A stretch of 64,000 bases of DNA from Clostridia bacterium (lineage in GTDB: Bacteria > Bacillota > Clostridia > TANB77 > UBA1234), in the NCBI GenBank assembly GCA_017462965.1, contig JAFTQC010000032.1, positions 138,026 to 202,025 of the forward strand, written 5' to 3'. Below the pieces are notes generated by a model that was not told the origin of the DNA, searched no databases, and saw only the letters and a list, made by a program, of their open reading frames with translations. The number at the start of each line of letters is the position of its first letter. The first letter of the stretch is position 1. The position numbers and the translations under genes are program-made. Of the stretch, positions 1 through 49,960 are shown one piece after another.

Positions 1-830
1 GCTGTGCAAAGAGCGGTGAGGTCAATGCTGTTGATGTCACTTGGTACAAGCTGTTTCCTGAAGTTGCTGAAATCTTGAGAGAGATGGGATATCGCGTTAA
101 TGAGGAACGTGACGAGGTATTTGTCATCTCTTGGAAAGATGCGGAATGTGGAGAAGCATTTGAAACCTGGAAGGCAACTGTTCCGCCTCGCATTAGGAAA
201 GTCCAGAAGGAGATTAAGCAATGTGCGGAGAATGGTGAATTCAGTGCTAATTTTTCCGTTAGATTGTCTCCGGAAGTTGTTGGAAAACTACGAGATATGG
301 GATATTGCATTGATGAAAGCAATCCCAGGGGTCATAGCATCTCTTGGAAATATGTCGAGAGTGGAAATGCGTATAAATCGTTTAAGGCAGCGGTTGAGTA
401 TCACTTCAATAAAGCACGGGAGCATCATATTCGGTTTGGTGTAGAGTGCGGTAGGGAGTATGCCTGGGTGAAATGCTTTCCGAGAGCAGCTGAAACTTTA
501 TTAGAGGCTGGATATCGTCTTGTTGATAAAGCTAATGACGCCCTTAAGGTCTCCTGGGAAGACGCGGAACGTGGAGAAGCGCAAGAGATGTGGAAGGCAA
601 CAATCGAAGTTCCATTCAATGGGGTTCAGAAACGGATTAATTCAAAAGCGAGATTTGGAGAAATCGATGTTGTTTTTCACTTCAGATTACTTCCGGAAGT
701 TGTCAAAGCTCTGCAAGATGAAGGATATCGTGTGATTGAGGAAGAAACTAAATATCATAGAGTATCCTGGAAAGATGCAGAGTGTGGAGAAGCCTTGGAA
801 ATGCGTCGAAAGGCAACCACCAATTTATAA
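1..830 (+). CDS. 5'-truncated tandem-repeat protein, frame open to window start. It has at least 4 units of about 70 aa sharing LPEVV..L..GY.V.E....VSWKDAE.GEA.E.WKA, and is about 50% GC.
   Basis: The frame from position 3 has no stop, so the gene continues upstream and the TTG at 75 is not the true start. The nucleotide period is about 211 bp (units near 88, 300, 511, 723). A hairpin plus T8 terminator lies at 845-880. Confidence 0.6.
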   Translation, partial: CAKSGEVNAVDVTWYKLFPEVAEILREMGYRVNEERDEVFVISWKDAECGEAFETWKATVPPRIRKVQKEIKQCAENGEFSANFSVRLSPEVVGKLRDMGYCIDESNPRGHSISWKYVESGNAYKSFKAAVEYHFNKAREHHIRFGVECGREYAWVKCFPRAAETLLEAGYRLVDKANDALKVSWEDAERGEAQEMWKATIEVPFNGVQKRINSKARFGEIDVVFHFRLLPEVVKALQDEGYRVIEEETKYHRVSWKDAECGEALEMRRKATTNL

Positions 831-1093
831 GCAAAAAGAGAGCAGCTGATTTTATATCAGTTGTCTCTTTTTTTTGTGGGGAATGTCGAGCTTGGCTAAT
901 AAAAGAAGAATGCTGATGGTTGTGACGTTTAATTCATATAGGATAAAACGTTGAAAATAAAGAAAATTTGTTATAAAATACCTGCATAGATAAAGGCGAA
1001 AAAAGTAAGAAAGTTAAGATATTATGTTTGAAAAATGCGATAATATCAAAGAAAGAGAGATAGTTATGATAAATAATATAAAAGAGAGGAAAG

Positions 1094-2356
1094 TTGCTTT
1101 TTATACATTGCGGTTGCAAGGTTAATCAATATGAAACGAATGCGATGGCAGAAGGATTTAGAAATGCAGGATATGAAATTGTTGAATATGAGGAGTATGC
1201 AGACGTTTATGTTGTAAATACATGTACAGTTACTAATATGAGCGATAGAAAATCAAGACAAATATTGAGACGTGCTAAAGAAATAAATCCGGATGCTATA
1301 CTTTGCGCAGTAGGCTGTTATGCACAAGTTGCAAAGGATGAATTAGCAAAAATAGAAGAAATAGATTTGATTCTTGGAAATAACGATAAAAAGCATATTA
1401 TAGAGAAAGTAGAAGAAATGTTGAAAACAAGGGAAAAGATGTTTCAGGTTTCAAATATGCTTGATGAAAGAAAATATACAGAATGGGGATACACGGCGTA
1501 TACGGATAAAGCAAGGGCTGAGATAAAAATACAAGATGGATGTGACAGATACTGTACATATTGCATAATTCCATATGCACGAGGACCTGTTAGAAGTAGA
1601 AAAATTAAGGATATTTGTGAGGAAATTAAGAAAATTGCTGAAACAGACATAAAGGAAATTGTTATAACAGGAATTCATATTTCCTCGTATGGCAAGGATT
1701 TGGAAAATAAACCAACTTTAATTGATTTGCTTGAAACGATTAACGAAATCGAAGGAATAGAAAGAATAAGACTTGGATCTTTGGAACCACTTATTATTAC
1801 TGAGGAATTTGTTACAAGATTAAAAAATTTGCATAAAGTATGTAATCATTTTCATTTATCACTTCAAAGTGGTTGTGATTCAACACTTGAGCGTATGAAT
1901 AGAAGGTATACCACTGATGAGTTTAGAAAAATTGTAAATATATTAAGGAACAATATTGAAGAAGTTGCTTTGACAACTGATGTAATCGTAGGATTTCCGG
2001 GTGAGACAGACGAAGAGTTTGAAGTTACATATAAATTTCTAGAAGAAATAAAATTTTCTAAAATGCATGTTTTTAAATATTCACCAAGAAAAGGAACAAA
2101 AGCGGCAACGTTCCCAAAACAAGTGGATGGAAAAATCAAGGATTTAAGAAGTGAAAAATTGATAGAATTATCCTTGAAAAATGAAATAGAATTTGCAAAA
2201 CAATATTTAAATAAAGAAGTCAAGGTTCTTTTTGAAAATGAACATGATGGTCATACAACTAATTATATTGAGGTGTATTCAAAAGAAGAACAGAAGCCAA
2301 ATACATTAATTGATGTATTAGTAAGAGAGCAAAAAAATGGAGTTATTCATTGTTAA
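1094..2356 (+). CDS. mtaB: tRNA t6A37 methylthiotransferase MtaB (radical SAM MTTase with TRAM domain). The N-terminus is split by a frameshift.
   Basis: Contains CDRYCTYC (CxxxCxxC) and the three N-domain cysteines (GCKVN, NTCTVT, VGCYAQ). An upstream ATG at 1066 with RBS encodes MINNIKERKVAFYTL in another frame, stopping at 1123. Confidence 0.85.
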   Translation: MLFIHCGCKVNQYETNAMAEGFRNAGYEIVEYEEYADVYVVNTCTVTNMSDRKSRQILRRAKEINPDAILCAVGCYAQVAKDELAKIEEIDLILGNNDKKHIIEKVEEMLKTREKMFQVSNMLDERKYTEWGYTAYTDKARAEIKIQDGCDRYCTYCIIPYARGPVRSRKIKDICEEIKKIAETDIKEIVITGIHISSYGKDLENKPTLIDLLETINEIEGIERIRLGSLEPLIITEEFVTRLKNLHKVCNHFHLSLQSGCDSTLERMNRRYTTDEFRKIVNILRNNIEEVALTTDVIVGFPGETDEEFEVTYKFLEEIKFSKMHVFKYSPRKGTKAATFPKQVDGKIKDLRSEKLIELSLKNEIEFAKQYLNKEVKVLFENEHDGHTTNYIEVYSKEEQKPNTLIDVLVREQKNGVIHC

Positions 2357-2420
2357 TTTTACTTGAACTTTTAAAATGTTTATTATAAAATTTTATTAAC
2401 ATTTGAAAGGAGTAAGAAAG

Positions 2421-2792: not shown

Positions 2793-2824
2793 TTTTTTAG
2801 CAAGAGGGGCGTCCCTCTTGCTAG

Positions 2825-2853
2825 TTGACAAAATACGGATTTCGTAGTAGAAT
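2825..2853 (+). promoter_or_regulatory. Sigma-A type promoter, TTGACA-17-TAGAAT.
   Basis: Exact hexamers with a 17 nt spacer, 45 nt upstream of the 2899 ORF. Confidence 0.5.
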
Positions 2854-2898
2854 ACACATGGTTTTGAACCTTATATTATCTGTATTGGAGGGAGTTTT

Positions 2899-3132
2899 AT
2901 GAAGATAACTCTGCAGCAAGTTCGAACCAACTTCCCTGGATGTATCCCTTGCCAATCCGACAATATCAAGGCCAGCTGCCAAGATGATGCACTGTGCAAA
3001 GTGCGGTTCCATCTTGGTGAGCCGGATAGTCTGGTTATTCAGGCACTTGAAGTCACCTGCGAATGCTGTGGTGAATCGGGTTATTATCCTGTCGGCCATC
3101 TCGGAAAGACTCGCAAGATGCTGAAACTGTAA
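2899..3132 (+). CDS. 77-aa Cys-rich protein (7 Cys, including a CECCG cluster) of unknown function, about 52% GC.
   Basis: Strong RBS ggaggga before the ATG. It has its own promoter, and the terminator hairpin ccccatcgaa..ttcggtgggg plus T-run lies at about 3214-3250. Confidence 0.5.
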   Translation: MKITLQQVRTNFPGCIPCQSDNIKASCQDDALCKVRFHLGEPDSLVIQALEVTCECCGESGYYPVGHLGKTRKMLKL

Positions 3133-3352
3133 GCGATACGGTTTTACAGCTTATTTTATTCGATGTCAATCTGAGAAACTTATGAACAAAACACCTTATA
3201 AGGGTGTCCCCATCGAACTTATTTCGGTGGGGTTTTTTATTTTAATTTGACGAATTTTATTGCAATAAGTTAAATGGTTGTGATATAATTCACCCATTCG
3301 TGTTGCTTACGCGAAAAATAAATAATCTTATATAAGTGGAGGTGTTATTTTA

Positions 3353-5605: not shown

Positions 5606-5703
5606 AATAAAATATAGATGATTAATACCCTGAGTTTACTTGAAAAAAATGTAAATTCAGGGTATAATTATATAAAACTTGTCGAAAGATGGGACGTGAT
5701 TTG

Positions 5704-7612: not shown

Positions 7613-7807
7613 TTGGAAATTGGGACGGTTCCTTTTTCCAGATTTTAATAATTGACAACAAAAAAGTATTGTTTTTAAGCCTCGGACAACTCATTATTCA
7701 TTGCGAACAAGATGCAATGAAAATGAGAACTCGGCGACAAAAAACAATACTTTTTTGTTGTCTTAAATAGTTTCATTTTTGGAAAAAGGAACCGTCCCAA
7801 TTTCCAA
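7613..7807. repeat. MITE-like palindromic element, copy A (195 bp). The TIRs are 28 bp: ttggaaattgggacggttcctttttcca.
   Basis: Perfect 28-bp terminal inverted repeats. The inner inverted repeat is caacaaaaaagtattgtttt / aaaacaatacttttttgttg. It exactly fills the gap between convergent stops 7608 and 7809. Confidence 0.85.
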
Positions 7808-9274: not shown

Positions 9275-9299
9275 GGACAAAAGCCCCGTCCCTTTGTCC
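9275..9299. terminator. H2-type hairpin ggacaaaagccccgtccctttgtcc plus T-run. Terminator of the mcrB-like gene.
   Basis: 7-bp stem ggacaaa/tttgtcc followed by ttttt. Same unit recurs at 22419, 24347, 36713, 42705 and 42776. Confidence 0.65.
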
Positions 9300-9303
9300 A
9301 TTT

Positions 9304-10620
9304 TTATATTATTTCTAGTAGTTCGGCTGATAATTTCTTGTATTTTTCAGGGTTATTTTTGAAATACTCTTTTAAAAGTGGGATAACACTGTATTTTACA
9401 AGCATTTTTATTTCTGAATCTGGCATTGGCTTGCAGAAATATGAGTGACCTATTTGCATACTTTCATCAAGTTCTAGATTAATTTCTTTGATTTTCTCGA
9501 TAACTGCAGCTAATAGAGGATTTTGATTATAAAAGTTTTTAAATTTTTCGTTATTGAAAACGGGGTTAATAGTATAAAAGCAAAATCTTCTTCTAAGTGC
9601 GTAATCAGAAAGTGCTAAATTATCGTCAAATGTGTTCATTGTTCCTATAATATAAAGGTTTTCAGGAACGTAAAACCTTTCTCTCGAACATGATAATTCA
9701 ATGTAATTTTCTTTACCTCTTTTATCAATTTCGATAAGAGAAAAGGCTTCTCCAAATATTTTAGGGATGTTTCCACGGTTAATTTCATCTATTATTACAA
9801 AGAATTTTTGATTTGGATTATTTCGAGCTTTGTTGCAAATACGTTTAAAACATCCGCGTTTGTATTTATATATACCGATATCATCTGGACGATACCCTTC
9901 GATGAATTCGTCATTTGAGTACATTTCGTGGAATTGAACGTTAAGCATCTTTTCATCATCTTTTGAACCGATGATAGAGAAGGCCATACGTCTAGCAATA
10001 TATGTTTTACCAACCCCGGGAGCTCCCTGTAATACAACATTTTTTCTGGCTAGTATTAGTTCACGAAGTTCATCATATTCAGCTTCGTCAAAGTATACAT
10101 CGTTAAGAAAATGTTCCTTTGAATATGCATCGTATATTTGATAGCTTTTTTTGGGATTTAGTTCGCGAAGCATGCTGTAGATTACTTCAAATTCGCGTTT
10201 TGAAAGCTTGAAAAGAGTACCTTGCATGTATCTAAAGACTTCAAGGTTTGCAAGCTCTATGTGAGTTTCCATATTGTAGCGTGAAACCGTATCTGTAAGT
10301 CCTTCGATTTTCTTTAACATGATTCGTTCATTTTCTAATTCTTGAACACAAATGCAAAGACCAAGTACTTCATTACTAGGCTCAACTTCATACGCAACAA
10401 CGATTTCACCACATTTAATTTCTGTAAAATTTTTATGAAGAGTTCTACTTGTTCCGTCTTCGTTAAGTGCGGAATAGTAAAAGCAATCATCTATATCTAA
10501 TTCTCTAAATTTAAGCATCTTTGGATTGATGCTAATCCACCAATAATTATTCATATGATTGTATGTGAAAGTATGTTTTTCACAATGCTCCTTCCTATAA
10601 AACTGCATATATATTATCAT
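9304..10620 (-). CDS. McrB-family AAA+ GTPase with an N-terminal EVE/PUA-like domain (candidate modified-DNA reader). No McrC partner is adjacent.
   Basis: Walker A QGAPGVGKT. McrB signatures FVIIDEINRGNIPKIFGE and NTFDDNLALSDYALRRRFCF. The N-domain pattern YWWISINP..F..L......R.L..NF..IK.GE.VV.YE is PUA-like. The true start is ambiguous (ATG at 10620, 10608 or 10554). Confidence 0.75.
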   Translation of the reverse strand: MIIYMQFYRKEHCEKHTFTYNHMNNYWWISINPKMLKFRELDIDDCFYYSALNEDGTSRTLHKNFTEIKCGEIVVAYEVEPSNEVLGLCICVQELENERIMLKKIEGLTDTVSRYNMETHIELANLEVFRYMQGTLFKLSKREFEVIYSMLRELNPKKSYQIYDAYSKEHFLNDVYFDEAEYDELRELILARKNVVLQGAPGVGKTYIARRMAFSIIGSKDDEKMLNVQFHEMYSNDEFIEGYRPDDIGIYKYKRGCFKRICNKARNNPNQKFFVIIDEINRGNIPKIFGEAFSLIEIDKRGKENYIELSCSRERFYVPENLYIIGTMNTFDDNLALSDYALRRRFCFYTINPVFNNEKFKNFYNQNPLLAAVIEKIKEINLELDESMQIGHSYFCKPMPDSEIKMLVKYSVIPLLKEYFKNNPEKYKKLSAELLEII

Positions 10621-12793: not shown

Positions 12794-12795
12794 CA

Positions 12796-12850
12796 GGAGG
12801 GACGCCCCTTTTTGTGAAAAAATTTTCACAAAAAGGGGCGTCCCTCTTGC
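12796..12850. terminator. H1-type long palindrome (agggacgcccctttttgtgaaaa aatt ttcacaaaaaggggcgtccct) plus A/T runs.
   Basis: About 23-bp perfect stem directly after the recG stop. Confidence 0.7.
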
Positions 12851-19784: not shown

Positions 19785-19978
19785 TTGGAAATTGGGACGG
19801 TTCCTTTTTCCAATTTTATCGAAAGACAACAAAAAAGTATTGTTTTTAAGCCTCAGACAACTCATTGTTCATTGCAACCATTATGCAATGAAAATGAGAA
19901 CTCGGCGACAAAAAACAATACTTTTTGTTGTCTTAAATAGTTTCTGTTTATGGAAAAAGGAACCGTCCCAATTTCCAA
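19785..19978. repeat. MITE-like palindromic element, copy B (194 bp). Same orientation as copy A and near-identical to it.
   Basis: Same 28-bp TIRs. Fills the gap between convergent genes ending at 19772 (+) and 19986 (-). Confidence 0.85.
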
Positions 19979-22418: not shown

Positions 22419-22444
22419 TGGACAAGGGGGACGGGGCTTTTGTC
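22419..22444. repeat. H2-type hairpin (ggacaagggggacggggcttttgtcc) between divergent genes, so not a terminator here.
   Basis: Reverse-complement form of the 9275 unit. Confidence 0.6.
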
Positions 22445-22469
22445 CATTTTATGAAGAATTTATAGCACT

Positions 22470-22498
22470 ATTGACACATTATGTAAAGTGATATATAA
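22470..22498 (+). promoter_or_regulatory. Perfect consensus sigma-A promoter TTGACA-17-TATAAT.
   Basis: 65 nt upstream of the 22563 ORF. RBS aaggagg precedes the ATG. Confidence 0.55.
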
Positions 22499-22562
22499 TA
22501 TCTGTGAAAATGAAATGCATTTTCGAATAAAGAATCTCAAATTTTGAGAAGGAGGAGTTTGC

Positions 22563-23420
22563 ATGGGCAAATCTCGCTGGAATCGGAGTGTAGCGATTCC
22601 TACCGAATCCTTAACTCTTGAGGAGTTGAAGGAGGCTATTCATGAATGGGCAGAAGGGTGCGACGAACTTGAAAAACTGTTGTGGTCTTGTTACAACAAT
22701 GGTTTGAAGACTGCTGGATGCCACGTTGGCAAGTACAACAATTACTTGCAGTATTATGTTGCTTCTGAGAGCAAAGAACAGTCTGCGCGTGTTCTCAATG
22801 CTACTGAATCGTATGGCAATAGTGAAGCGTTTCTTACTTTCGGCGGTAATCCGATTAGTGGTCCGTCGTGGTACAAGACGAATATTAGCATTTCGTCGTA
22901 TATTCCTGACGATGTTGGCTCTTTTTATGCCAGCATTAATAGGGAATTGGAAGGCGAAACACATGTTGAGGCACGCTGTTTTGGACTGATGGCTGAATTC
23001 GCAGATTTTTTCGAAGATAAGATGACCGGACTTTATTTTCGGGTGACTGTTCGTAATCATTCCGAATATAGGTTTATTGTCGAATCTTACATGAATCAGC
23101 GGAACTGGGAATATCTTGATGAACTTTTCGGTTCTTTGGGTCTGGTTCGTGAAGAAAGAGAAGACGTTCCGCTTGTCGCATGGAGCTTGAATGCTTCTTC
23201 GGAAGAGGAGTTTTATAATGGAGTGAAATCTCTTCTGGATGCAATTCGTAGCAACTGGGCAATCGAGACTCCCACGACTTTTTTTGATGATATGGGTTTC
23301 AATCTCAAGGCATTGATCATGCAGAAAAAGTTTGGTACGACTCCTGAGGGTGTGGCTCTGATGAACAACTGGATCAACACCAATCATCCCAATCCCAATG
23401 TGCGCAAGGTCAATTATTGA
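22563..23420 (+). CDS. 285-aa hypothetical protein, about 50% GC with CG-rich codon usage.
   Basis: A long antisense shadow ORF (22611-23387) reflects the composition. The plus strand is chosen because of its promoter and RBS. Confidence 0.55.
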   Translation: MGKSRWNRSVAIPTESLTLEELKEAIHEWAEGCDELEKLLWSCYNNGLKTAGCHVGKYNNYLQYYVASESKEQSARVLNATESYGNSEAFLTFGGNPISGPSWYKTNISISSYIPDDVGSFYASINRELEGETHVEARCFGLMAEFADFFEDKMTGLYFRVTVRNHSEYRFIVESYMNQRNWEYLDELFGSLGLVREEREDVPLVAWSLNASSEEEFYNGVKSLLDAIRSNWAIETPTTFFDDMGFNLKALIMQKKFGTTPEGVALMNNWINTNHPNPNVRKVNY

Positions 23421-23589
23421 TAAGCGCGAGAAAGAATAACAATGAACACCTCTTATGGCACATGCTGTAAGGGGTGTTTATTGTTATCCTTATTGTATGT
23501 GCTTGTTATATTATATCAATATGGCTATAATGTTGGTGAATTGTCACTCTTTTTCTAAAACATCTCATTTGTTTGAGGAGGGAAGCTTT

Positions 23590-24114
23590 ATGTGTTTGTT
23601 CAAACGGCCATCTAATAGAAATTATGAATTCGATGCGAAATTAGAAGACCATCCCGTTGGCAATCAGGACATCTACAGATTACACTATGTTCATTACCAT
23701 AGGATTCAGGAGTATGACGGATGCACCGATAATAACGTCGGTGTTATAAACTGGTGGTGCAGGCCTTTCAAAATGCCGGCTGGCATGACTCGTGATGAAG
23801 GATTCAAGGTTTTGTCCTATCTGACAGATTTCATTGAAAAAAGGCCTGATATAGATCCTTGCTCTTGGAAATCTGTTCGGACCCTTGATTCAGTTTTGAA
23901 TCTTGAGCGTTTTGACTTTACTAGGGTCGACGAAAAAGACGAAAACAAAATTCTGGATCTTTTTTCTGTTGGAGGCAGAATCTTGCTTTTCAAAAAGAGC
24001 GAGCACTATCCGCGTTATTTTGAATGGTATGTCCAAAACGTGTCATTTGATGAGGTTCATAGCATATATGAAAGCTGTGGAATGGAGTTTAAAGATATTG
24101 TATGGCTTGATTAA
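23590..24114 (+). CDS. 174-aa hypothetical protein with higher GC.
   Basis: RBS gaggaggga before the ATG at 23590. Promoter TTGTTA-17-TATAAT near 23503-23531. The longer track ORF from 23455 lacks an RBS. Confidence 0.5.
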   Translation: MCLFKRPSNRNYEFDAKLEDHPVGNQDIYRLHYVHYHRIQEYDGCTDNNVGVINWWCRPFKMPAGMTRDEGFKVLSYLTDFIEKRPDIDPCSWKSVRTLDSVLNLERFDFTRVDEKDENKILDLFSVGGRILLFKKSEHYPRYFEWYVQNVSFDEVHSIYESCGMEFKDIVWLD

Positions 24115-24145
24115 AAGCTATAAACATTGAGGACGTCTGTTAAAC

Positions 24146-24342
24146 TTGGAAATTGGGACGGTTCTTTTTTCCAAAATACAAACTTTTTAAAACAACAAAA
24201 AAAGTATTGTTTTTTGTCGCCGAGTTCTCATTTTCATTGCATCATGTTTGCAATGAACAATGAGTTGTCTGAGGCTTAAAAACAATACTTTTTTCGTTGT
24301 CTTACGTTAAAATTGGACAAAAGCCCCGTCCCAATTTCCAAA
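24146..24342. repeat. MITE-like element, copy C (197 bp). Its core is inverted relative to A and B, and its right TIR is a hybrid with the H2 unit (ttggacaaaagccccgtcccaatttccaa).
   Basis: Followed by the H2 hairpin at 24347-24371 and the H3 repeat at 24374-24410. Confidence 0.8.
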
Positions 24343-24455
24343 AAAGGACAAAAGCCCCGTCCCTTTGTCCAGACAATCGTCCATTTGCCGGACGTCCCTC
24401 ATGGACGATTATTTACATTAATAGCTATTTATGGTATAATCTGCGAGGTGATGTC

Positions 24456-31884: not shown

Positions 31885-32175
31885 TTATCAAGAGGGACGC
31901 CCCTTTTTGAAAAAAAATTCATCAAGAGGGACACTCCTTGATTAAATTGATTAGTATAAGAAGAAAGTATTCCTTTCAAGCTTTAAACAGAATATTTATA
32001 TTACATATATGATTTAATACAAATGAGAAATTAGCAACAAAAACAATACTTTTTGTATTGAATAAAATTAGTTGAAGTAAGCTAAAAAAGTGACTTTTAC
32101 TGATAAATATTTTTTCTCAAAAAGGGCTGTCCCTTTTGATGAATTTTTTCTCAAAAAGGGGCGTCCCTCTTGATA
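31885..32175. repeat. Cluster of H1 hairpins (caagagggacgcccctttt) plus a degenerate ~40 bp fragment of the MITE core (aatgagaaattagcaacaaaaacaatactttttgtattg) at about 32022-32060.
   Basis: By eye against the cores of copies A and B. Confidence 0.55.
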
Positions 32176-36650: not shown

Positions 36651-36737
36651 TGGAAAAGAGAACCGTCCCAAATTCCAATTTGGAAATTAGGACGGTTCCG
36701 TTTTCCAAAAAAGGACAAAAGCCCCGTCCCTTTGTCC
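36651..36737. repeat. Core-less MITE derivative: a right-type TIR is directly followed by a left-type TIR forming a ~26 bp stem, then an H2 hairpin and a T-run. It acts as the terminator of the 32333 gene.
   Basis: tggaaaagagaaccgtcccaaattccaa + ttggaaattaggacggttccgttttccaa + ggacaaaagccccgtccctttgtcc tttttttt. Confidence 0.75.
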
Positions 36738-36796
36738 TTTTTTTTATTGCATAAATTCTTTTACAAATTCATATAATTGGATTTGAGGAGGGGGCT

Positions 36797-37534
36797 ATGA
36801 TTGTTTTTACGAAAAAGGATTTGATGTTTTATTCTTTTATGTTTGTGATTTTGGTGATTTCAATAGTTATGCCGATAACAGTAGATGGATTTCATGATAC
36901 CGTGATTGATGCAACTGCGAATCTGGAGCAAGTGACAATAGTGGTGGATGCTGGGCATGGTGAACCTGATGGAGGGGCTGTTTCGGCAAATGGAGTAAAA
37001 GAGAGCGATTTGAATCTTATGATTGCTAAAAAGTTAAGAGATAAGTTGAAAGAAGAGAATTTTAATGTTGTAATGACTAGAGAAAATGAGAATAATGTAG
37101 CAGATTCGACGATGCAAAATAGTAGCATCAGAGAGATTAAAACTGCGGATTTAAATAATAGAGTGAAAATTGCAAATGGGAGTGATGCTCTTTTACTTGT
37201 GTCTATACATATGAACAAATTTCAGGATTCTAAGTATAGGGGATGGCAAACTTTTTATTCTCAAAATTCTGAAAAGGGGAAGTTATTAGCTGAGAGTATT
37301 CAAGAATCGATAAAAGAAAGCGTAGAAATAGAAAATAATAGAACAGCGTTGAAGATTGATGGAATAAAAATAATAGACAAATCAACTATTCCGGCGGTGA
37401 TAGTGGAATGTGGTTTTTTATCAAATCCAGAAGAGTGTGCATTATTGCAAAATGATGAATATCAAGAGAAACTTGCTGAAGGAATAAAAAGTGGAATAGA
37501 AAAATATTTGAGTAAGATGAAAGCGAGTACTTAG
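36797..37534 (+). CDS. N-acetylmuramoyl-L-alanine amidase (Amidase_3, CwlD-like) with an N-terminal TM segment.
   Basis: VVDAGHGEPDGGA..MTRENE..SIHMN motifs. A terminator hairpin lies at 37536-37560. Confidence 0.8.
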   Translation: MIVFTKKDLMFYSFMFVILVISIVMPITVDGFHDTVIDATANLEQVTIVVDAGHGEPDGGAVSANGVKESDLNLMIAKKLRDKLKEENFNVVMTRENENNVADSTMQNSSIREIKTADLNNRVKIANGSDALLLVSIHMNKFQDSKYRGWQTFYSQNSEKGKLLAESIQESIKESVEIENNRTALKIDGIKIIDKSTIPAVIVECGFLSNPEECALLQNDEYQEKLAEGIKSGIEKYLSKMKAST

Positions 37535-37565
37535 TGTAAGTACTCGCTTTTGATGATTTTTTGGA

Positions 37566-38174
37566 TTACTGGGCGGAAACGTCTTCCAGGTACCAGGCTA
37601 CAGAATCCTTGATTCTTTGATAGCTCTTTTCATTGATGAGCGGATATCCGTCACCTGTGTAAAGCAGCCACACGTCGCCATACAAATCAATCTTGAAGTT
37701 ACCAATCAGAGCAGAAGTGCCGGTGATTGCAACTCCATCACCAATTTCGTGAGGATAGAAGTTGATTGCGACGTCTGTTGCTTCAAGATTTCTGTTGACG
37801 TAGAGAATTACATTCATGAGATGGACCCAAGTTTCCTTGGTAGAAATCGAATAGTTGTATTCTTCAACGATTTTTTTGAGCCTTTGGTAACTGATCATGT
37901 TGATGTTGTCAGGATTATATGCAAACGTTGCACCGGAAAGAAGTTGACCTTGATTTTCTGTATCCCATTTGACACAAATTGCAAATGGCACATTGTTTTC
38001 GTCCCGGATGAGCGTGGGGATAATCCCAATTTCGTCTTCGAGATAGCCCATTGCCTGATCGAGAGGAATGCTTACGATTTCTTCCGTAAAATCTTCTGCA
38101 CTTGCAGGAATGGTTGTGAAAACCAAAGAGAGGAGGAGCATGATGCAAAGGGCAAATTTGGAGTTTCGAGTCAT
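37566..38174 (-). CDS. 202-aa secreted hypothetical protein with a signal peptide, about 50% GC.
   Basis: Signal peptide ...IPASA. Its promoter is at 38235-38264. A long antisense shadow ORF overlaps it. Confidence 0.55.
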   Translation of the reverse strand: MTRNSKFALCIMLLLSLVFTTIPASAEDFTEEIVSIPLDQAMGYLEDEIGIIPTLIRDENNVPFAICVKWDTENQGQLLSGATFAYNPDNINMISYQRLKKIVEEYNYSISTKETWVHLMNVILYVNRNLEATDVAINFYPHEIGDGVAITGTSALIGNFKIDLYGDVWLLYTGDGYPLINEKSYQRIKDSVAWYLEDVSAQ

Positions 38175-38234
38175 TTTGACACGTCCTTTCTTGTCGGTGA
38201 GTTAACTTGTGCAAGTGTCCATGAAAAAATTAAG

Positions 38235-38264
38235 ACACAAGAATATTATACCATTTTGTTGCAA
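38235..38264 (-). promoter_or_regulatory. Consensus promoter TTGACA-18-TGgTATAAT (minus strand) for the 37566-38174 gene.
   Basis: About 85% identical over 40 bp to the minus-strand promoter at 47579-47607. Confidence 0.55.
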
Positions 38265-38277
38265 TTTATGTCAACTA

Positions 38278-38923
38278 CTAGTGACTTATAAGAAAAGTTA
38301 AGAAAAGCATATGCAGAGGATAAAAAGCATAAAATAGATATTTTATATTTTTCCCTTTTTGACCATTATATAGGCATATTGGAATTAATGCTAATATAGC
38401 TGGAATGTTGAAGCCACTGCTACACACGTGGCAGTAGAATAGCAATAATATTGCATATCCAATAGAATGAAGGAATTTGGAATCCTTAAATATATAGAAA
38501 ATGATGATTGCAAGGAATCCATAGAAAGAATAATCCATTGGAACTATCCATGAGATGCCAAATAAAATAAATAAAAGTGGCATTTTAATTGCAGGATGCT
38601 TGATTTTGTCGATAACATATAGAGCTAATAATCCAGTTGTTAAGGTAGCACCTACATTTAGTTTGAATGCTGTTCCTGGTGCAGCAGCATTTAAAAATAA
38701 ATCATATGGTATTTGCGAAATTATTGTAAAAATAAGCATTCTAATAATATATTTTTCTTTACTTTTTGTATGTGAAAATCCATTTGCGATTTGAAATGCA
38801 AAAATAGGGAAGGCAAGTCTACCGAATCTGCCTAAAAATAGGATATTCTTTAAAAAGTCCAAATCCTATGTGATCTATAAACATTGTAATAATTGCAAGA
38901 ATTTTTAAACCAAATGAAGTCAT
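38278..38923 (-). pseudogene. TraX-family membrane protein with an apparent frameshift between the N-terminal 34 codons (MTSFGLKILAIITMFIDHIGFG...) and the main ORF (..GRLAFPIFAFQIANGF..).
   Basis: ATG at 38923 with RBS ggagg. That frame stops at 38819-38821, and the main frame restarts with TTG at 38862. Confidence 0.55.
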
Positions 38924-39033
38924 AGTCAAGTACCTCCTAACATAGTATTTTAGCACTTGCTGAAGAAGAATAGAAGAATATTATTTTATTTTTATATAAA
39001 GAAAGAGAGCCTTGTAAGGCTCTCTTTTTGTGG

Positions 39034-39660
39034 TCAGTCTACCATCTCCTGCTGATAGGACTCTTCAATGCACTGAACAAATTCCTCGTTCAGCATGAAG
39101 ATGTTGTCCTTTGCCCAGCAGAAATCGCCGTGCGAAGCGAAGCGGTAGAAGATTCCTTCAGCGGTAGGAATCCGGAAGGCAAGATGATTGTTAATCATCG
39201 CTACATCCAGTTCCACCTGGAATTTTTCCTCAAACTGCTTAAATGCTTCAGCGATATTTACGTAGCGTTCGTCGCCATCGATGATATACGCCACGTCTTC
39301 AGCGACTTGCTCTTCACAGACCAAGGATTCGTCACGACGATCGTACTTGTCTTTCAACGCAAACGCGGTGGACGGCTTAAGTCCGATGCAGTTCGCGACG
39401 TTTCTGCTTTCATCGTAAATGAAGAACAGGTCATCTTTACGGATAAGTTCCGTGTGGAAGCTTTCCGCGTCGCTGTTATAGCAGCAAAGGAGCAGGTGGC
39501 CATGAGCGTCGAGCTCCAAGGACCAGTCTTCGTCGCCGAAGATGTTTTTCATGAGTTCATCCCCAAAGGGAAATTCCTCGCTTGCCAGGGCAGCAGTGGG
39601 GGTGAAGGTCAGAGTCGCGGTCAGGATTGCGGTCAGGATCATAGCAAAAAACTTCTTCAT
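39034..39660 (-). CDS. 208-aa secreted hypothetical protein with a signal peptide, about 48-50% GC.
   Basis: RBS aagaggag before the ATG. Promoter candidate TTGACA-17-TGgTAAACT at about 39854-39890 (minus), giving a ~190 nt leader. Confidence 0.55.
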   Translation of the reverse strand: MKKFFAMILTAILTATLTFTPTAALASEEFPFGDELMKNIFGDEDWSLELDAHGHLLLCCYNSDAESFHTELIRKDDLFFIYDESRNVANCIGLKPSTAFALKDKYDRRDESLVCEEQVAEDVAYIIDGDERYVNIAEAFKQFEEKFQVELDVAMINNHLAFRIPTAEGIFYRFASHGDFCWAKDNIFMLNEEFVQCIEESYQQEMVD

Positions 39661-39894
39661 GATAATTCTCCTCTTGATGATGTAGTTGAGCGGGATACGG
39701 TCTATTGGTCAATGTTGCGTCATCTCATAAGGCAACTCCTTCTTGATACGTACGACTGAGCACGCTTTGGTTGCATGAAAAAAGCATGCATACCGCAGAG
39801 AACATTAAGTTGAGTCAGTCAATCTCACAAAAGTTCCTGCGTGTTGTTAAAAAACACAATTATAGTTTACCACTTTTTGTATATTATGTCAACG

Positions 39895-39955
39895 TTCGAA
39901 GGGCGTCCCTCTTGATGATTTTTTTATCAAAAAGGGGCGTCCCTCTTGCTAGTTT
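39895..39955. repeat. Pair of H1 hairpins (gggcgtccctcttga ... aaaaggggcgtccctcttgc).
   Basis: Same unit as at 2795, 12796 and 31885. Confidence 0.6.
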
Positions 39956-42702: not shown

Positions 42703-42704
42703 AA

Positions 42705-42805
42705 AAGGACAAAGGGACGGGGCTTTTGTCCTTTTGGAGAATAATTTTTTATAGTGCTGATTTAAACAAGAAAAAAAGGACAAAAGCCCCGTCCCTTTGT
42801 CCTTT
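42705..42805. repeat. Two H2 units in inverted orientation about 50 bp apart. They can form either two local hairpins or one long stem.
   Basis: ggacaaagggacggggcttttgtcc ... ggacaaaagccccgtccctttgtcc. Confidence 0.65.
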
Positions 42806-42825
42806 TTTATTAAGGAGGAAATCTA

Positions 42826-46746: not shown

Positions 46747-46853
46747 AAATCGTCCGTTGGGGACGTCCATTAAATGGACGATTTGGTAACAAAAAGGCGC
46801 CCTTTTGGGGCGTCTCTTTTTTCTACTGTGTAAGATGATACAGTAGAGGGTGA

Positions 46854-47462
46854 TCAGTTGTCGTATTCCTCACAGGCAGCGTCGATGATTTTCGAAGAAT
46901 CGACACCTGCTTCATCGCAGAGCTGCTGGAAGAAACGGGCGTCGTCTTCACCTTCGTCATAGGCTGCATCATTGAGCGAATCGAGGTGTTCACGTTCGAC
47001 CATCGCATTGTAATGGGGGTCGTTCTTGATTTTCTCATGAATCTCGTGTCCCCAGGGATTTTCCTGCATTTTCATGTTGTACAGAAGCCCAGTAAGGACG
47101 TAGACATCGTTCGTCGCCAGGAGAATGGATGCCGCTTTCTGGCAAAGATTCTCATTCTGAGAGAGAATGCTTTGAACAGCTCCGTTTTTCTTCTGAGCAA
47201 AAACAATCTGAGCTTTTTCACAGATTGCCTTGTTTTCAGCCAGAGTGTCCCACAGAAACTCGAAGTCGCTGTTTGTCGCGATACGAATCTGTAATTGGGG
47301 AATGATGCAGGGATTGCTTGCCAATGCTTCAATGAAGCAATTTTCATCGAGCTTCCAAACAGCAAGCTGTTCTTCTTTGGAGAGCTGCTGGGTTGCTACA
47401 TACCGTTCGACATCGGCGGTAGAAGCTTGGTAGAGGAATGCTTCGAACTTTTTCATTTCCAT
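46854..47462 (-). CDS. 202-aa acidic hypothetical protein with higher GC.
   Basis: RBS aaggag. Its minus-strand promoter TTGACA-17-TATAAT lies at plus 47579-47607. Confidence 0.5.
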   Translation of the reverse strand: MEMKKFEAFLYQASTADVERYVATQQLSKEEQLAVWKLDENCFIEALASNPCIIPQLQIRIATNSDFEFLWDTLAENKAICEKAQIVFAQKKNGAVQSILSQNENLCQKAASILLATNDVYVLTGLLYNMKMQENPWGHEIHEKIKNDPHYNAMVEREHLDSLNDAAYDEGEDDARFFQQLCDEAGVDSSKIIDAACEEYDN

Positions 47463-47578
47463 TTTCGTTTTGCTCCTTCTTTTTTGTCTTCATCGCTATT
47501 TAGCATAGCGACTACAGGAAATGATTCTGCAATAGCACGTAAAAGAATGCTACCTTGCAAATTCAGAATCACAAAAAA

Positions 47579-47620
47579 ATTATACCATTGTTTGAATTTT
47601 ATGTCAACTTATGGTATAAT
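47579..47620. promoter_or_regulatory. Back-to-back overlapping divergent sigma-A promoters on a quasi-palindrome. Minus strand: TTGACA-17-TGgTATAAT. Plus strand: TTGAAT-17-TGgTATAAT.
   Basis: The -35 boxes of the two promoters interdigitate (47592-47597 plus, 47602-47607 minus). Confidence 0.55.
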
Positions 47621-47686
47621 GTCTCTGTTGAAGTTCGACTTTCAACGGTATCCAATCAAATAATTTAGAAGGGATGTGAAAACAAG

Positions 47687-48655
47687 GTGGGTAAGAAGCA
47701 ACTGACGTATACCCCACTGAGGCTGGTCGATGAGTACAGCCGGGCTATCCGAGAGTTTGAAAAAGCGCGAGCTTTGAGAACAATTGGTGGAGCCGAAGAT
47801 GAAGTTGGTGCTGCTGTTGAATTCGCTGTACCGCGGATTTACGAGCGAAATGGCATCAAAGGACGCAAGCCTACGAAGGCGGAAGAGGATTTACTTGTTT
47901 ACCAAATCTATGATTATGCAATTGCAACGGTAATTGCATCATATTGGAGCAAGTGTAAGCAGGTGTATACCTTTTCTCGTGATTTCTATGAGATGCTCCT
48001 GGATATGGATGATTTCGATATTGGCTGGTCGCTTTTCGACTATCTGCCGTACGAAGCGTTCTATCTGGAACTCAAGGAACACAAGGAAATTGATGGTGTG
48101 CTTGTAAAGTATACGAAAGGTCCGAGACCTTCGATTCTTTACACTATCTGTGGTAAGAAAGGTAGATTGCTTAACATCAATAGCGGCATTGTGGATCCTC
48201 GTGACAATATCAGCTATAAGAGCTTCTTTGAGACGGAAGTCTTTTGCTCTAAAGCGGATATGAGTGCTCCTTACGTTGTGCTTGTGAGGCAAGTGTTGGC
48301 GTTCACTTTGCAGGCATGCATGTATCTGTGTGCGAAGAATGCAGATATTGAGGAAAATCCTCTCCAGAAGAAGATTTATACTCCGTCCAAAACGATTCGG
48401 AATCGTTTCTCCGAAATTCGCAAGTGGGATGTAGGTGTACGAGTCGTTCGCGAGCATAAGGCTGCACAAGATCTGTCAACGGAAACATCTGATGCACCTG
48501 ATGTATTTCGGCGTAGGCCCCGTCAACATTGGCGCAAAGCCCACTGGCATACCTACTGGGTAGGCAAGGGACGAGCCAAGCGCGAGCTCAAGTTCATCGC
48601 TCCGGTACTGGTGAATGATAACGGTGACGAGATGCCGGTAATTGTTCACGAGTAA
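47687..48655 (+). CDS. 322-aa hypothetical protein, about 55% GC. GTG start.
   Basis: Served by the plus promoter at 47592-47620. CG-rich codons. Confidence 0.5.
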   Translation: MGKKQLTYTPLRLVDEYSRAIREFEKARALRTIGGAEDEVGAAVEFAVPRIYERNGIKGRKPTKAEEDLLVYQIYDYAIATVIASYWSKCKQVYTFSRDFYEMLLDMDDFDIGWSLFDYLPYEAFYLELKEHKEIDGVLVKYTKGPRPSILYTICGKKGRLLNINSGIVDPRDNISYKSFFETEVFCSKADMSAPYVVLVRQVLAFTLQACMYLCAKNADIEENPLQKKIYTPSKTIRNRFSEIRKWDVGVRVVREHKAAQDLSTETSDAPDVFRRRPRQHWRKAHWHTYWVGKGRAKRELKFIAPVLVNDNGDEMPVIVHE

Positions 48656-48727
48656 AGACAACAAAAAAGAGGAAATTTGCTATTGTAGCGGGTTTCCTCT
48701 TTTTCATTTGTTGTAGTACCTCAAAAA

Positions 48728-49960
48728 TTATTTCGTACCTTTCTTTTTAGGAATCGTGAGACGGAGTGGGTAGCGGTAGGTTACGCCTTGAGTGGGATGA
48801 ACTGCGAAGAGTTTCTGGATGGGATAGTTGGCGGTGACGAGACCTTTCATGGAGTAGAGACTGCCACCAGGCCAGCAACCGTTGACGAATTTTTCAGTGG
48901 TGACGCCAGAAAGTTCGGAAGGCACGTGGAAATGTCCGAGTTCAAGGTAATTGTAGCTGAGTCCCATGAGTTCCAAAAGTTCGCGATAGTTCTTAGCAGC
49001 GCGGTCGATACCGTAGTAGGGAATGCCCTGCCAAGAGCGAATATCGTCGCCGTGGAACATCAGGAAATTGAAACCGTAAATCTTGTCGATTTGCCACCAG
49101 GACTTAGTGATTTGCCAGGTGATGCGGTCATAGTTCTTGAGTTCAGACTGCATCCACTTGTATACGATGTAGTCCCAGCTGACGTAGTGCAAGTTTTCAC
49201 CCTTGCTACCGATACGGCCGTGGTTACCGGGAACCGCAACAACGTGGATTTTGTCAAACAGGTGAAGTGCCTTAAGCAAGAAGTCACAAAGCAAATCTTT
49301 GACGCCGATTGCTTGTTCGGTGATTTCGCGGTCGATTTGACGAGTCTGACCTTTGAAGATGTCATATCCCTCAACAATGTCACCAATAAGATGAACATGC
49401 AGCGAAGAGATAGGAGCAACTTGCTTGTGACGAGTGACGATTTCTTCAAGTCCTTTGTAAAGCTGGACAAACTGCTTCTCAAGGATTTCCCAGTTGTATT
49501 CATTGAGACCACCACTTGCTTCGTCGGAGATATAGGTACCAGCCTGAATATCCGAAATCATAAGCACGATGGTTTCTTCAGAGTAGTTGCGGTCGACGTT
49601 AACCTTGAAGGGTTTGATGTCGCGCAAAGGACGATCCTTGATGATATCTTTGATAGAGTCGACGATCATGTCAGTGACAGCAATCTTGGTAAGCAGCTTT
49701 TTGTCGCGTCTTGCGACTTCAGAAGAAATGATGCTGGTACGACGTTCAGAAACTTCATCCTCGAAAGTCTTGGGCGGCGGAGGGTACTCTTCACGCAAAA
49801 AACGTTTTACAGTCCGCGCAGAAGATTCCTTGCCTTTAAAGTTCGGTCCATATTGTTCGTAAACTTTAGAAATGATTTCCTCTTCAGTATGTCCCTCTTC
49901 ATGGAGAATACGTGCAAACTCTCTCCAGGTAATAGTAGGTTCTACCTTCTGATTTCTCAT
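48728..49960 (-). CDS. Calcineurin-like metallophosphoesterase (GDxxE, GNHG, GHxH motifs) with a ~135-aa N-terminal extension. High GC.
   Basis: HLIGDIVEG, VAVPGNHG, MFHGDD and LGHFHVP motifs. RBS gaaggagg. The antisense ORF 48788-50026 is a shadow. Confidence 0.6.
   Translation of the reverse strand: MRNQKVEPTITWREFARILHEEGHTEEEIISKVYEQYGPNFKGKESSARTVKRFLREEYPPPPKTFEDEVSERRTSIISSEVARRDKKLLTKIAVTDMIVDSIKDIIKDRPLRDIKPFKVNVDRNYSEETIVLMISDIQAGTYISDEASGGLNEYNWEILEKQFVQLYKGLEEIVTRHKQVAPISSLHVHLIGDIVEGYDIFKGQTRQIDREITEQAIGVKDLLCDFLLKALHLFDKIHVVAVPGNHGRIGSKGENLHYVSWDYIVYKWMQSELKNYDRITWQITKSWWQIDKIYGFNFLMFHGDDIRSWQGIPYYGIDRAAKNYRELLELMGLSYNYLELGHFHVPSELSGVTTEKFVNGCWPGGSLYSMKGLVTANYPIQKLFAVHPTQGVTYRYPLRLTIPKKKGTK

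Follow-up and report, generated by a model that had tools for sequence, protein, structure and literature searches.

The window, a 64-kb stretch of chromosome from an uncultured low-GC gut species of Clostridia, carries nine GC-elevated genes, here called islands i1 to i9 (Table 1), among about 46 genes in all. All nine open reading frames (ORFs) of the initial annotation are present, eight of them as exact NCBI-annotated proteins (MBQ8299001-038), and its view that they are compositionally foreign holds. GC content ranges from 0.39 to 0.49 in the island genes and from 0.26 to 0.36 in 35 backbone genes, and third-position GC content (GC3) does not overlap between the two groups (islands 0.37–0.63; backbone 0.21 ± 0.04, maximum 0.28, 35 genes), each island lying 4.2–11 sd over the backbone mean (Mann–Whitney p = 2e-6). 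The contrast of about 50% with 28% GC first proposed is real in direction and overstated in size, pooled values being 45.3% for island DNA and 31.5% for the remainder of the window; the 60-bp samples behind it were roughly right (0.50, 0.50, 0.55 instead of 0.57, and 0.25 instead of 0.27) and unrepresentative of whole ORFs. AGA/AGG are the main arginine codons in most backbone genes and CGN codons dominate in seven of the nine islands, as had been claimed for all; i4 and i5 use mainly AGA/AGG. Antisense shadow ORFs are present as described, for example at 22611-23387(-), 37617-38291(+), 39028-39759(+), and 48788-50026(+).

Table 1. Island genes of the window with their cassettes and predicted expression signals.
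Island	Cassette	Strand	ORF	Product	Signals
i1	1..864	+	1-830	3' part, 276 codons, of P0145 (466 aa; IJX99_03895)	terminator-like hairpin 842-864
i2	2825..3232	+	2899-3132	77 aa, 8 Cys	promoter-like 2825-2853 (11 of 12); GGAGGG ribosome-binding site; terminator-like hairpin 3208-3232
i3	22471..23483	+	22563-23420	285 aa	perfect promoter 22471-22499; terminator-like hairpin 23440-23483
i4	23503..24114	+	23590-24114	174 aa	promoter-like 23503-23531 (10 of 12); GAGGAGGG ribosome-binding site
i5	37518..38274	-	38174-37566	202 aa, signal-peptide-like N-terminus	perfect promoter with TG extension 38274-38245; shared hairpin 37518-37552
i6	39002..39892	-	39660-39034	208 aa, signal-peptide-like N-terminus	promoter-like 39892-39864 (10 of 12, with TG); terminator 39027-39002
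i7	46798..47607	-	47462-46854	202 aa	perfect promoter with TG extension 47607-47579; terminator 46812-46798
i8	47592..48704	+	47687-48655	322 aa, AcrVA2/FinQ family	promoter-like 47592-47620 (10 of 12, with TG); bidirectional terminator 48664-48704
i9	48664..50048	-	49960-48728	410-aa metallophosphoesterase, helical N-terminal domain	promoter-like 50048-50020 (9 of 12, with TG); shared terminator 48664-48704

GC-elevated genes are not confined to these nine. A tenth lies immediately upstream of the window, and such genes account for 12–37% of coding bases at each of the six loci inspected in relatives or in extensions, where they include housekeeping-type proteins such as an RNase J-like paralogue, a thymidylate kinase, and a Band_7 protein. 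The suggestion that such a concentration is very unusual is therefore doubtful, the frequency of GC-rich genes in the six sampled loci going part of the way to refuting it.

Each island is a small cassette in which an ORF is preceded by a promoter and a ribosome-binding site and followed by a terminator. Three perfect σ70-type sites (TTGACA-N16-18-TATAAT) occur in the 64 kb against 0.19 expected, and each of them precedes an island ORF (i3, i5, and i7); the promoter-like sites of the remaining islands score 9–11 of 12, that of i1 lying outside the window. At the level of sequence pattern, the initial annotation was thus correct in giving each ORF a near-consensus promoter. The i5 and i7 promoters are alike beyond the hexamers, the i7 and i8 promoters stand back-to-back, and i6 has a GC-rich 5' leader of roughly 200 nt. 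Terminator-like hairpins follow the island ORFs on their 3' side. With promoter-like and terminator-like sites of their own, the islands are probably separately expressed genes, as had been proposed.

i9 belongs to the phage-type metallophosphoesterase nucleases and resembles DP1, the small subunit of PolD. It matches PHROG 284 ‘exonuclease’ (E 8e-40), and its metal-binding motifs are invariant in 32 homologues. Relatives were found on 271 IMG/VR contigs and in 171 GenBank phage records. On the two viral contigs whose context was examined, the i9 relative lies after replication and recombination genes (a DnaD-like loader and a Holliday junction resolvase; L178) or ahead of terminase and portal genes (L176). 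Metal-binding motifs are conserved as in other calcineurin-like nucleases (archaeal PolD DP1, SbcD/Mre11, PHROG 284). i9 differs in carrying about 120 aa of additional helical sequence as an N-terminal domain, in having no partner gene (DP2, SbcC, or Rad50) nearby, and in standing alone in at least four bacterial chromosomal contexts, three of them outside this locus. It is likely a DP1/Mre11-type nuclease drawn from a phage replication and recombination module.

The initial annotation recognized a fold in i9 only, which is wrong because i8 is AcrVA2-like. i8 matches Pfam PF26125 (precomputed) and PHROG 6160 (E 1e-19), with distant finQ plasmid matches and phage matches as well. The AcrVA2/FinQ family has been reported from diverse mobile elements (bioRxiv 10.1101/2022.11.29.518452). 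The protein has nearly the length of AcrVA2 (322 aa vs 323 aa) and keeps the C-terminal H-x-R-x-x-H-W-H-x-Y-W motif, its HWRKAHWHTYW aligning with H286/R288/H291, the residues that AcrVA2 activity needs (PDB 7ci1; bioRxiv 10.1101/2022.11.29.518452). Similarity beyond the C-terminus is, in contrast, very low (phmmer E 0.016), and i8 further differs from the known family in being chromosomal and kept at one locus in at least three related species, with no Cas12a gene visible in its 64-kb window. A likely role for i8 would be to reduce mRNA levels for one specific target protein, whether to counter defence systems or to compete with other mobile elements.

The other islands are less readily classified. 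i3, likely a conserved protein, belongs to an uncharacterized family of 135 representative clusters and has no Pfam or PDB sequence match and no fold match. One distant homologue of i4 was found, P0121, a protein of 425 aa whose N-terminal half is 57% identical to i4. i1 has a GC of 0.44 and a GC3 of 0.37, and in its full 466-aa protein a module of roughly 70 aa (...PEV..L...GY.V ... SW.D.E.GEA) is repeated six times. i5 (GC3 0.47) and i6 (GC3 0.63, the highest of the nine) are likely secreted proteins, judging from their N-termini; both are singleton clusters for which the homologue search found none. i7 (GC3 0.54) has a near-identical cluster mate, and word-index search gave no further homologue. 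The same search found no homologue of i2 (GC 0.49, GC3 0.50), a singleton cluster annotated by NCBI only, and the coding status of i2 is less certain than that of any other island. No donor was identified for any island, and as i2, i5, i6, and i7 lack homologues other than the i7 cluster mate, the argument for their foreign origin is one of composition and slot variability only. i3, i4, i8, and i9 are under strong purifying selection (pN 0.08–0.24 vs pS 0.72–0.76, against orthologues), which bears out the earlier view that the islands are real coding genes.

Core gene order is kept in related species, where i1, i3–i4, and i8–i9 occur at the same loci and the slots of i5, i6, and i7 hold other cargo. 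Orthologues of i3 (63% identical; L262 and L263) and i4 (71%; L263) adjoin each other, and those of i8 are 63% identical in L172, L173, and L269. In L172 and L173 the same AddB...Cthe_2159 locus carries i9 and i8 orthologues without i7, whose slot there and in L269 is taken by three or four different small ORFs. L268 and L269 lack i5 and i6: the BcrAD-like gene is directly followed by TraX, and different genes fill the TraX–LepA slot over about 7 kb. One of these, GC-elevated but unrelated to i6, takes the i6 position upstream of LepA. The slot that holds a serpin gene in the window holds a type I restriction-modification system in L268 and SUKH/M78 genes in L269. Turnover of these slots among relatives is thus directly observed, and so is the recent exchange of one cassette: the i1 homologue at the same locus in L256 is 89% identical with a dS of 0.08, whereas dS reaches 1.36 in the neighbouring MtaB gene, and high identity extends from the i1 promoter up to the MtaB start codon. 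Among same-species contigs compared, no presence/absence polymorphism of islands was seen. There are no tRNA genes in the window and no direct repeats flanking the islands, and neither Pfam nor NCBIfam annotates an integrase or transposase among their neighbours. A ComEC competence gene lies at 16751-19075.

Synonymous sites of both island and backbone genes are saturated. GC3 of i8 and i9 is 0.48–0.54 here as opposed to 0.28 and 0.31 in their same-locus L172 orthologues, so that old acquisition and amelioration alone do not explain the GC-rich versions in the window; a later replacement from a GC-richer pool would have to be assumed.

The source is a metagenome-assembled genome (MAG) with sharp changes in GC at gene boundaries, as would be expected if reads from an organism of roughly 47% GC had been chimerically joined into a low-GC contig. 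The initial annotation rejected chimeric assembly and we agree, the identical gene order around the islands being found on 6–9 independent contigs from different samples and assemblers (among them ENA ERZ28018670; Logan SRR12529365, SRR12529332, and SRR12529359; and an NCBI MAG with locus tags IJX99_03895-04095). As related species moreover hold orthologous islands at the same loci, and every island has host-style signals and edges in intergenic DNA, this explanation is effectively refuted. It is unlikely that the islands are native, long-resident genes whose GC was raised locally by GC-biased gene conversion at hot spots or by expression-linked selection. The strongest predicted promoters of the window on island genes, the GC-elevated housekeeping-type proteins of the six other loci, and the sharing of i1, i3–i4, and i8–i9 with species that have reached saturation at synonymous sites of the backbone would all fit such a history. 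The i4, i8, and i9 orthologues have backbone-like GC3 (0.20, 0.28, and 0.31), however, so high GC is not intrinsic to island genes; the slots show gene replacement besides sequence change, and i8 and i9 are of phage or plasmid families. To our knowledge, effects reported for biased gene conversion in bacteria are far below the GC3 shift of +0.2 to +0.4.

The initial annotation proposed that the nine may form a single dispersed set of accessory genes sharing an origin or function; remnants of a single phage or mobile element, or a coordinated anti-defence repertoire, would be examples. We consider such a set improbable, although GC is elevated in all nine, predicted promoters are strong, and i8 and i9 are both of phage or plasmid families. 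The nine proteins have no detectable pairwise homology, their GC3 is widely spread, their distributions across relatives differ, and PADLOC gave no matches. The i9 homologues in L084 and L088 have none of the other eight islands within 10 kb, nor did any of the eight turn up beside the i9 relatives of 81 viral loci; i9 alone was seen among the matches listed (40 of the 171 phage records), and the plasmid matches, 11 in total, all fall on it. The sole hint of linkage is in another MAG (L169), where homologues of i3 (35% identical) and i9 are 4 kb apart within a GC-elevated patch; together with the likeness of the i5 and i7 promoters, it would allow some of the islands to have a source in common. 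Decay of one or more prophages in these slots, nearly all else having been deleted, would account for the adjacent phage-type genes i8 and i9, along with i7, for the viral i9 relatives in replication modules beside terminase, and for the block of unknown genes in the TraX–LepA slot of relatives. Against this quite improbable course stand the lack of structural, lysis, integrase, and repressor genes or att-like repeats in any slot, the single-gene nature of most islands, the solitary i9 genes elsewhere, and a promoter and terminator for each gene, unlike operon fragments.

We favor, with a probability of about 0.68, the reading that the nine are separate accessory genes of heterogeneous ancestry that arrived independently in hot spots and are exchanged via flanking genes. 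The acquisition route and the island functions are what we infer here. The islands occupy variable intergenic slots of an otherwise conserved, syntenic chromosome, and at least two of them come from phage or plasmid gene families; they would have arrived at different times, i1, i3–i4, and i8–i9 before the split from related species and i5, i6, and i7 in this lineage. Homologous recombination in flanking conserved genes may be how related species gain, lose, and exchange cassettes, as the one case of i1 suggests, presumably with no element-encoded integrase or transposase, none having been seen. Their raised GC would reflect donor composition, incompletely ameliorated, and they would have no common functional system.

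Phage ‘morons’ are transcription units of their own that have been inserted into phage genomes (PMC3594210). The islands resemble them in comprising one ORF with its own promoter and terminator, in a composition unlike that of their neighbours, in lying between conserved genes, and in horizontal spread; they differ in residing in a bacterial core chromosome, between housekeeping genes such as LepA, AddB, MtaB, and a ClpB-like gene, outside any prophage. Comparative genomics also knows, as general concepts, genomic islets, hot spots where accessory genes turn over, and ORFans of bacterial chromosomes that stem from mobile elements. Like islets, the islands are small insertions of one to three genes without an integrase, at recurrent intergenic positions where cargo differs among related genomes, and many are ORFans. 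Foreign DNA in bacterial chromosomes is more often AT-richer than its host, whereas these islands are GC-richer; their density (nine of about 46 genes) is also unusually high and their promoters are strikingly near consensus. Rather than a hidden gene system, the nine islands look like a known and ordinary kind of feature, islets of single genes that resemble morons and sit at hot spots of recombination.

The nine GC-elevated ORFs picked out by the initial annotation (i1 to i9, here called islands; see the table) are all present, eight encoding proteins identical to annotated ones in the NCBI MAG "Clostridia bacterium" (IJX99_03910...04095) and i1 being the C-terminal portion of the 466-aa protein IJX99_03895. 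They represent 9 among about 46 genes in an otherwise core region with an ordinary backbone (MtaB, HelD, Nth, McrB, RecG, DnaG, RpoD, ComEC, ClpB-like ATPase, CCA-adding enzyme, ArgS, aldolase, BcrAD-type activase, LepA, SpoU methylase, ScpB, AddB/AddA, and MreB). Their foreign composition is real but had been overstated: whole-window GC is 32.9%, and pooled island DNA has a GC content of 45.3% against 31.5% for the remainder, rather than about 50% against 28%. The contrast itself holds at the level of single genes, with a GC content of 0.39–0.49 in island versus 0.26–0.36 in backbone genes (n = 35), and GC3 values of 0.37–0.63 versus 0.21 ± 0.04 (maximum 0.28), two ranges that do not overlap and that place the islands 4–11 sd over the backbone mean (Mann–Whitney p = 2e-6). 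CGN codons are the main arginine codons in seven islands, the exceptions being i4 and i5 (mainly AGA/AGG); AGA/AGG prevail in most backbone genes. The long antisense ORFs mentioned in the initial annotation are also found, and are an expected by-product of GC-richer coding DNA. Its view that the assembly is not chimeric is upheld, as an artefact is ruled out by the recovery of the exact i9, LepA, and i1 proteins on 6–9 contigs each, from several samples and assemblers and always in the same context, and by orthologous islands at the same loci in related species.

Positions of the islands and other features in the window and in comparison loci from other contigs
Feature	Sequence	Position (nt)	Description
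i1	Window	1-830	
i2	Window	2899-3132	77 aa, 8 Cys
i3	Window	22563-23420	285 aa
i4	Window	23590-24114	
i5	Window	37566-38174	
i6	Window	39034-39660	
i7	Window	46854-47462	
i8	Window	47687-48655	322 aa, AcrVA2/FinQ family
i9	Window	48728-49960	410 aa, metallophosphoesterase
i5 promoter-like site	Window	38245-38274	
i7 and i8 promoter-like sites	Window	47579-47620	
McrB-like GTPase gene	Window	9304-10620	Backbone
ComEC/Rec2 competence channel gene	Window	16751-19075	
CCA-adding/poly(A) polymerase-family ORF	Window	24297-25667	Mechanical ORF, opens with TTG at 24297
REP-like repeats within this ORF	Window	24309-24410	Three repeats
Promoter-like site within this ORF	Window	24412-24440	Good match
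CGTCCC/GGGACG palindromes (examples)	Window	2798-2823, 7615-7640, 9275-9300, 12794-12850, 19787-19812, 22420-22446, 24142-24410, 31889-31936, 32159-32172, 36655-36750, 39901-39948, 42705-42810, 46750-46825	
AT-rich segment	Window	61201-62400	GC 0.16-0.23, strongly AT-rich; one small ORF only
Tenth GC-elevated gene	L265	7217-8884	GC 0.46, GC3 0.48
Type I restriction-modification system	L268	14148-20017	HsdM, HsdS, HsdR; complete
SUKH_5, M78-peptidase, and uncharacterized genes	L269	12657-16463	
GC-elevated genes beside i9 and i3 homologs	L169	8442-9545, 11954-12661, 14053-15118	GC 0.42-0.47
Tandem repeats	L084	9760-9940	Upstream of i9 homolog

Core gene order is kept in this region, with turnover of cargo in a limited number of intergenic slots, and the nine ORFs are the present cargo of these slots in this species. 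Two large scans gave no close species: among genome contigs with LepA no relative exceeded 74% identity among the matches listed, and among metagenome contigs with the SpoU methyltransferase the best reached 77%, the match lying on a 5.7-kb contig whose local synteny differs. Island homologs were absent from the about 160 LepA or SpoU neighborhoods. Related contigs were obtained through exact-protein and cluster look-ups. One of them, locus L256, shares about 87% DNA identity and has an i1 homolog in the corresponding position upstream of MtaB, its GC content likewise being 0.44. Between the window and this locus dS is 0.08 for i1, 1.36 for the adjoining MtaB, and 0.51 for the next gene, and the high-identity tract runs from the i1 promoter to the MtaB start codon; i1 is therefore a single cassette (one ORF with its own signals) recently swapped between two diverged species.

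Other islands have stayed longer. Beside a ClpB-like neighbor 83–89% identical at the protein level, loci L262 and L263 carry, in the same position, orthologs of i3 (63%) and i4 (71%) whose GC3 is lower (0.37 and 0.20). In L172 and L173, with AddB and Cthe_2159 about 80% identical (protein), the slot between these two genes holds an i9 ortholog 88% identical over the aligned region (87% by BLASTP) and an i8 ortholog at 63%; i7 is missing and the intervening small ORFs differ from those of the window. The old residents i3, i4, i8, and i9 are under purifying selection, with a pN of 0.08–0.24 versus a pS of 0.72–0.76. At the same locus, i8 and i9 have a GC3 of 0.48–0.54 in the window versus 0.28–0.31 in L172, with synonymous sites saturated, and this excess would fit either a recent replacement in this lineage from a GC-richer pool or differing rates of amelioration.

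By contrast, i5, i6, and i7 are lineage-specific. In L268 and L269 (LepA 95–96% and backbone 80–85% identical at the protein level), TraX directly follows the BcrAD-like gene, the amidase and i5 are missing, and the TraX–LepA slot contains about 7 kb of other, uncharacterized genes, among which an unrelated GC-elevated gene (GC3 0.50–0.56) takes the exact position of i6; homology to the window picks up again at the LepA promoter. Four small ORFs replace i7 in these loci. The slot between ScpB and Cthe_2159, occupied by a serpin gene in the window, houses the type I restriction-modification system in L268 and the SUKH_5 and M78-peptidase genes in L269, so the same hot spots also accommodate defense-type cargo. 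At each of six examined loci, from relatives or extending the window, GC-elevated genes account for 12–37% of coding bases. The contig of the window itself has a tenth such gene about 1.1 kb ahead of the first window position, within the overlapping 21-kb locus L265. Its product is an RNase J-like protein (beta-CASP/metallo-beta-lactamase type) of 555 aa, and the gene is also found in L256. It is probably a foreign paralog, located 1.9 kb downstream of a second RNase J-like gene whose low GC (0.33) is native.

Each island is a compact unit in which a σ70-type promoter-like site and a Shine–Dalgarno sequence precede one ORF, most being followed by a terminator-like hairpin. These patterns bear out the earlier claim that every foreign ORF has its own promoter, and would make the island genes independent transcription units, as judged from sequence patterns. 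Exact matches to TTGACA-N16-18-TATAAT number three in 64 kb versus 0.19 expected, and all three front islands (i3, i5, and i7), none fronting the roughly 37 backbone genes; this exclusiveness suggests that the cassettes may bring in strong, possibly phage-type promoters. The GC-elevated tract of i6 takes in a 5' leader of about 200 nt and reaches the promoter, which thus seems to be part of the imported DNA. The divergent i7 and i8 have back-to-back promoters forming a near-palindromic pair with common TGGTATAAT elements, and the likeness between the i5 and i7 promoters extends past the hexamers (TTGACATAAATTGCAACAAAATGGTATAAT versus TTGACATAAAATTCAAACAATGGTATAAT). A common promoter source may underlie the likeness among these three, or it may be due to chance. 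Comparison of i9 loci from different genomes gave no evidence of promoter or terminator conservation, since their flanks do not align.

Two island genes, i8 and i9, are clearly tied to phage or plasmid families. The initial annotation had correctly recognized a metallophosphoesterase fold in i9 but considered it the only recognizable one, which does not hold given that i8 is AcrVA2-like. The exact i8 protein has a match to Pfam PF26125 (AcrVA2-like) on record in a precomputed table, the local Pfam copy giving no match at E<=1; it also matches PHROG 6160 (E 1.1e-19) and, distantly, plasmid finQ and phage ORFs. Its C-terminus, HWRKAHWHTYW, aligns (phmmer, 7ci1) with HIRRGHWHGYW of AcrVA2, a segment covering H286, R288, and H291, residues at which mutation abolishes AcrVA2 activity (bioRxiv 10.1101/2022.11.29.518452). 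The AcrVA2 family, including FinQ, is reported in the same study to be widespread on mobile elements, mostly in hosts without Cas12a (bioRxiv 10.1101/2022.11.29.518452). The i8 gene itself shows no mobile-element hallmarks; it lies in the Cthe_2159–AddB interval, between two core genes, and is syntenic in L172, L173, and L269. A role of this family, which i8 may share, is to lower a target mRNA (Cas12a or transfer genes) through nascent-peptide recognition. A chromosomally conserved member of this family could serve the host against mobile elements.

The neighboring i9, located between i8 and AddB, matches PHROG 284 "exonuclease" (E 8.1e-40), and scores 20.8 bits against Pfam Metallophos, slightly below the cutoff of 21.5. 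Metal-binding motifs (D, GD, GNH, H, GHxH) are kept in the family: G193-D194, G245-N246-H247, H303, and H345 are invariant in 32 homologs, at least 90% of which also keep D137 and H343. In motif I, as read off the sequence, Gln replaces the usual His (SDIQ). The protein thus shares profile, metal motifs, and fold with DP1/Mre11-like nucleases but is without an adjoining partner subunit, no DP2 polymerase or SbcC/Rad50 ATPase being found in the window or in L084, L088, and L169. In these three low-GC Clostridia MAG loci an i9 homolog is a lone GC-elevated gene in further, unrelated contexts, with an i3 homolog 4 kb away in L169 within a patch of GC-elevated genes. Viral-contig scans with single proteins (i9 and i8) found almost nothing; an alignment-based scan was effective for i9 only, the i3 alignment being too variable. 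Relatives of i9 occur in 171 GenBank phage records and 271 IMG/VR contigs, and in the two viral contigs examined for gene context the relative lies downstream of replication and recombination genes (DnaD-like loader, Holliday junction resolvase; L178) or precedes terminase and portal genes (L176). Given its solitary occurrence in at least four chromosomal contexts and its commonness in phages, it is conceivable, though rather unlikely, that i9 is a homing-type nuclease gene of an undescribed kind that propagates itself. The L169 patch is about 8 kb long and may represent the decayed remains of a mobile element. Its other GC-elevated genes code for an AAA_28 ATPase, a thymidylate kinase, and a pair of small uncharacterized proteins (164/179 aa and 182 aa) that may be akin to each other. 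In L084, a unit of roughly 35 nt (...GTCCGACGCAAAGTGTTCGCTGGG...) is repeated in tandem about four times.

Some of the homology searches used island proteins joined by X spacers into one query. A full HMMER scan recovered 135 representative clusters for i3, a family with no Pfam or PDB sequence match. The protein was considered as a possible LAGLIDADG homing endonuclease, a candidate rejected because i3 did not match the double alpha-beta-beta-alpha-beta-beta-alpha fold of known LAGLIDADG structures, the weak LAGLIDADG-like Foldseek hits having TM-scores of about 0.2. One distant relative (57% identity) was found for i4 in addition to its ortholog in the related species. On direct inspection a module of roughly 70 aa occurs six times in i1, and i5 and i6 have signal-peptide-like N-termini. 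No homolog of i2, i5, i6, or i7 was found in a word-index search that misses relatives below about 40% identity; the same search came back empty for i3 despite its 135 clusters, and the ORFan status of these four is therefore provisional. PADLOC defense models gave no meaningful match for the island proteins.

About 30 short intergenic palindromes with a CGTCCC/GGGACG core are scattered over the window. Their arms fall into three or more types, and the three distinguished (GCAAGAGGGACGCCCC, GGACAAAAGCCCCGTCCC, and GGAAATTGGGACGGTTCC) amount to 24 copies, with 9 more in the overlapping L265; one 14-mer has 12 matches versus 0.02 expected. The palindromes are essentially missing at the loci of relatives and look like a REP- or MITE-like element that has expanded in this species. 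They have no Rfam match, and some copies also form terminator-like hairpins. The mechanical ORF of the CCA-adding/poly(A) polymerase-family gene spans three of them together with a promoter-like site, and its true start codon is probably beyond 24440.

The initial suggestion of one dispersed accessory gene set is unsupported, given that no mutual similarity was detectable among the nine proteins, that their presence in relatives differs, and that the slots turn over. Nor do the islands resemble a classical genomic island or integrative element, with its integrase or recombinase, tRNA or att site, and direct repeats: domain annotation and gene tables gave no integrase or transposase domains among the neighbors, the window has no tRNA genes or Rfam matches, and no bracketing direct repeats or target-site duplications were found at the islands. 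The shared palindromic end site and integrase of integron-like cassettes are likewise absent, with no IntI-like gene; the REP-like palindromes were rejected as cassette recombination sites because they occur in most intergenic regions with or without an island and are missing at several island borders. Phage morons come closer, as independent transcription units with their own promoter and terminator, a likeness that holds here as a pattern, but the islands lie outside any phage or prophage and the window is without phage structural, lysis, or integration genes. It is conceivable, and in our estimation rather unlikely, that single-gene cassettes with strong promoters of their own represent a separate type of transferable unit in these gut Clostridia, moving phage-derived and ORFan genes between the chromosomes of related species into a few intergenic slots, with i9 as a possible homing-type member.

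The islands instead fit a familiar pattern, that of single-gene islets gained by horizontal transfer, or of accessory genes resembling morons, at hot spots; they reveal no new system. In the only dated exchange, that of i1, the tract ends inside or beside conserved flanking genes. Because the cassettes have no mobility genes and the i1 exchange stops at the flanks, the most economical route would be delivery by DNA uptake or transduction followed by homologous recombination through the flanks. The ComEC/Rec2 gene of the window would fit DNA uptake as the route of cassette exchange.

The main value of the analysis is to put right the reading of the islands as one dispersed gene set. It also leaves leads in the chromosomal AcrVA2/FinQ-like i8, the recurrent lone phage DP1-like nuclease i9, and the i3 family of about 285 aa, confidently modeled and without a known fold relative, while i1 provides a clean case of one cassette passed between species. 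Small foreign cassettes, located at hot spots of recombination, make up a considerable proportion of the genes in this otherwise core region of an uncultured lineage of low-GC Clostridia.
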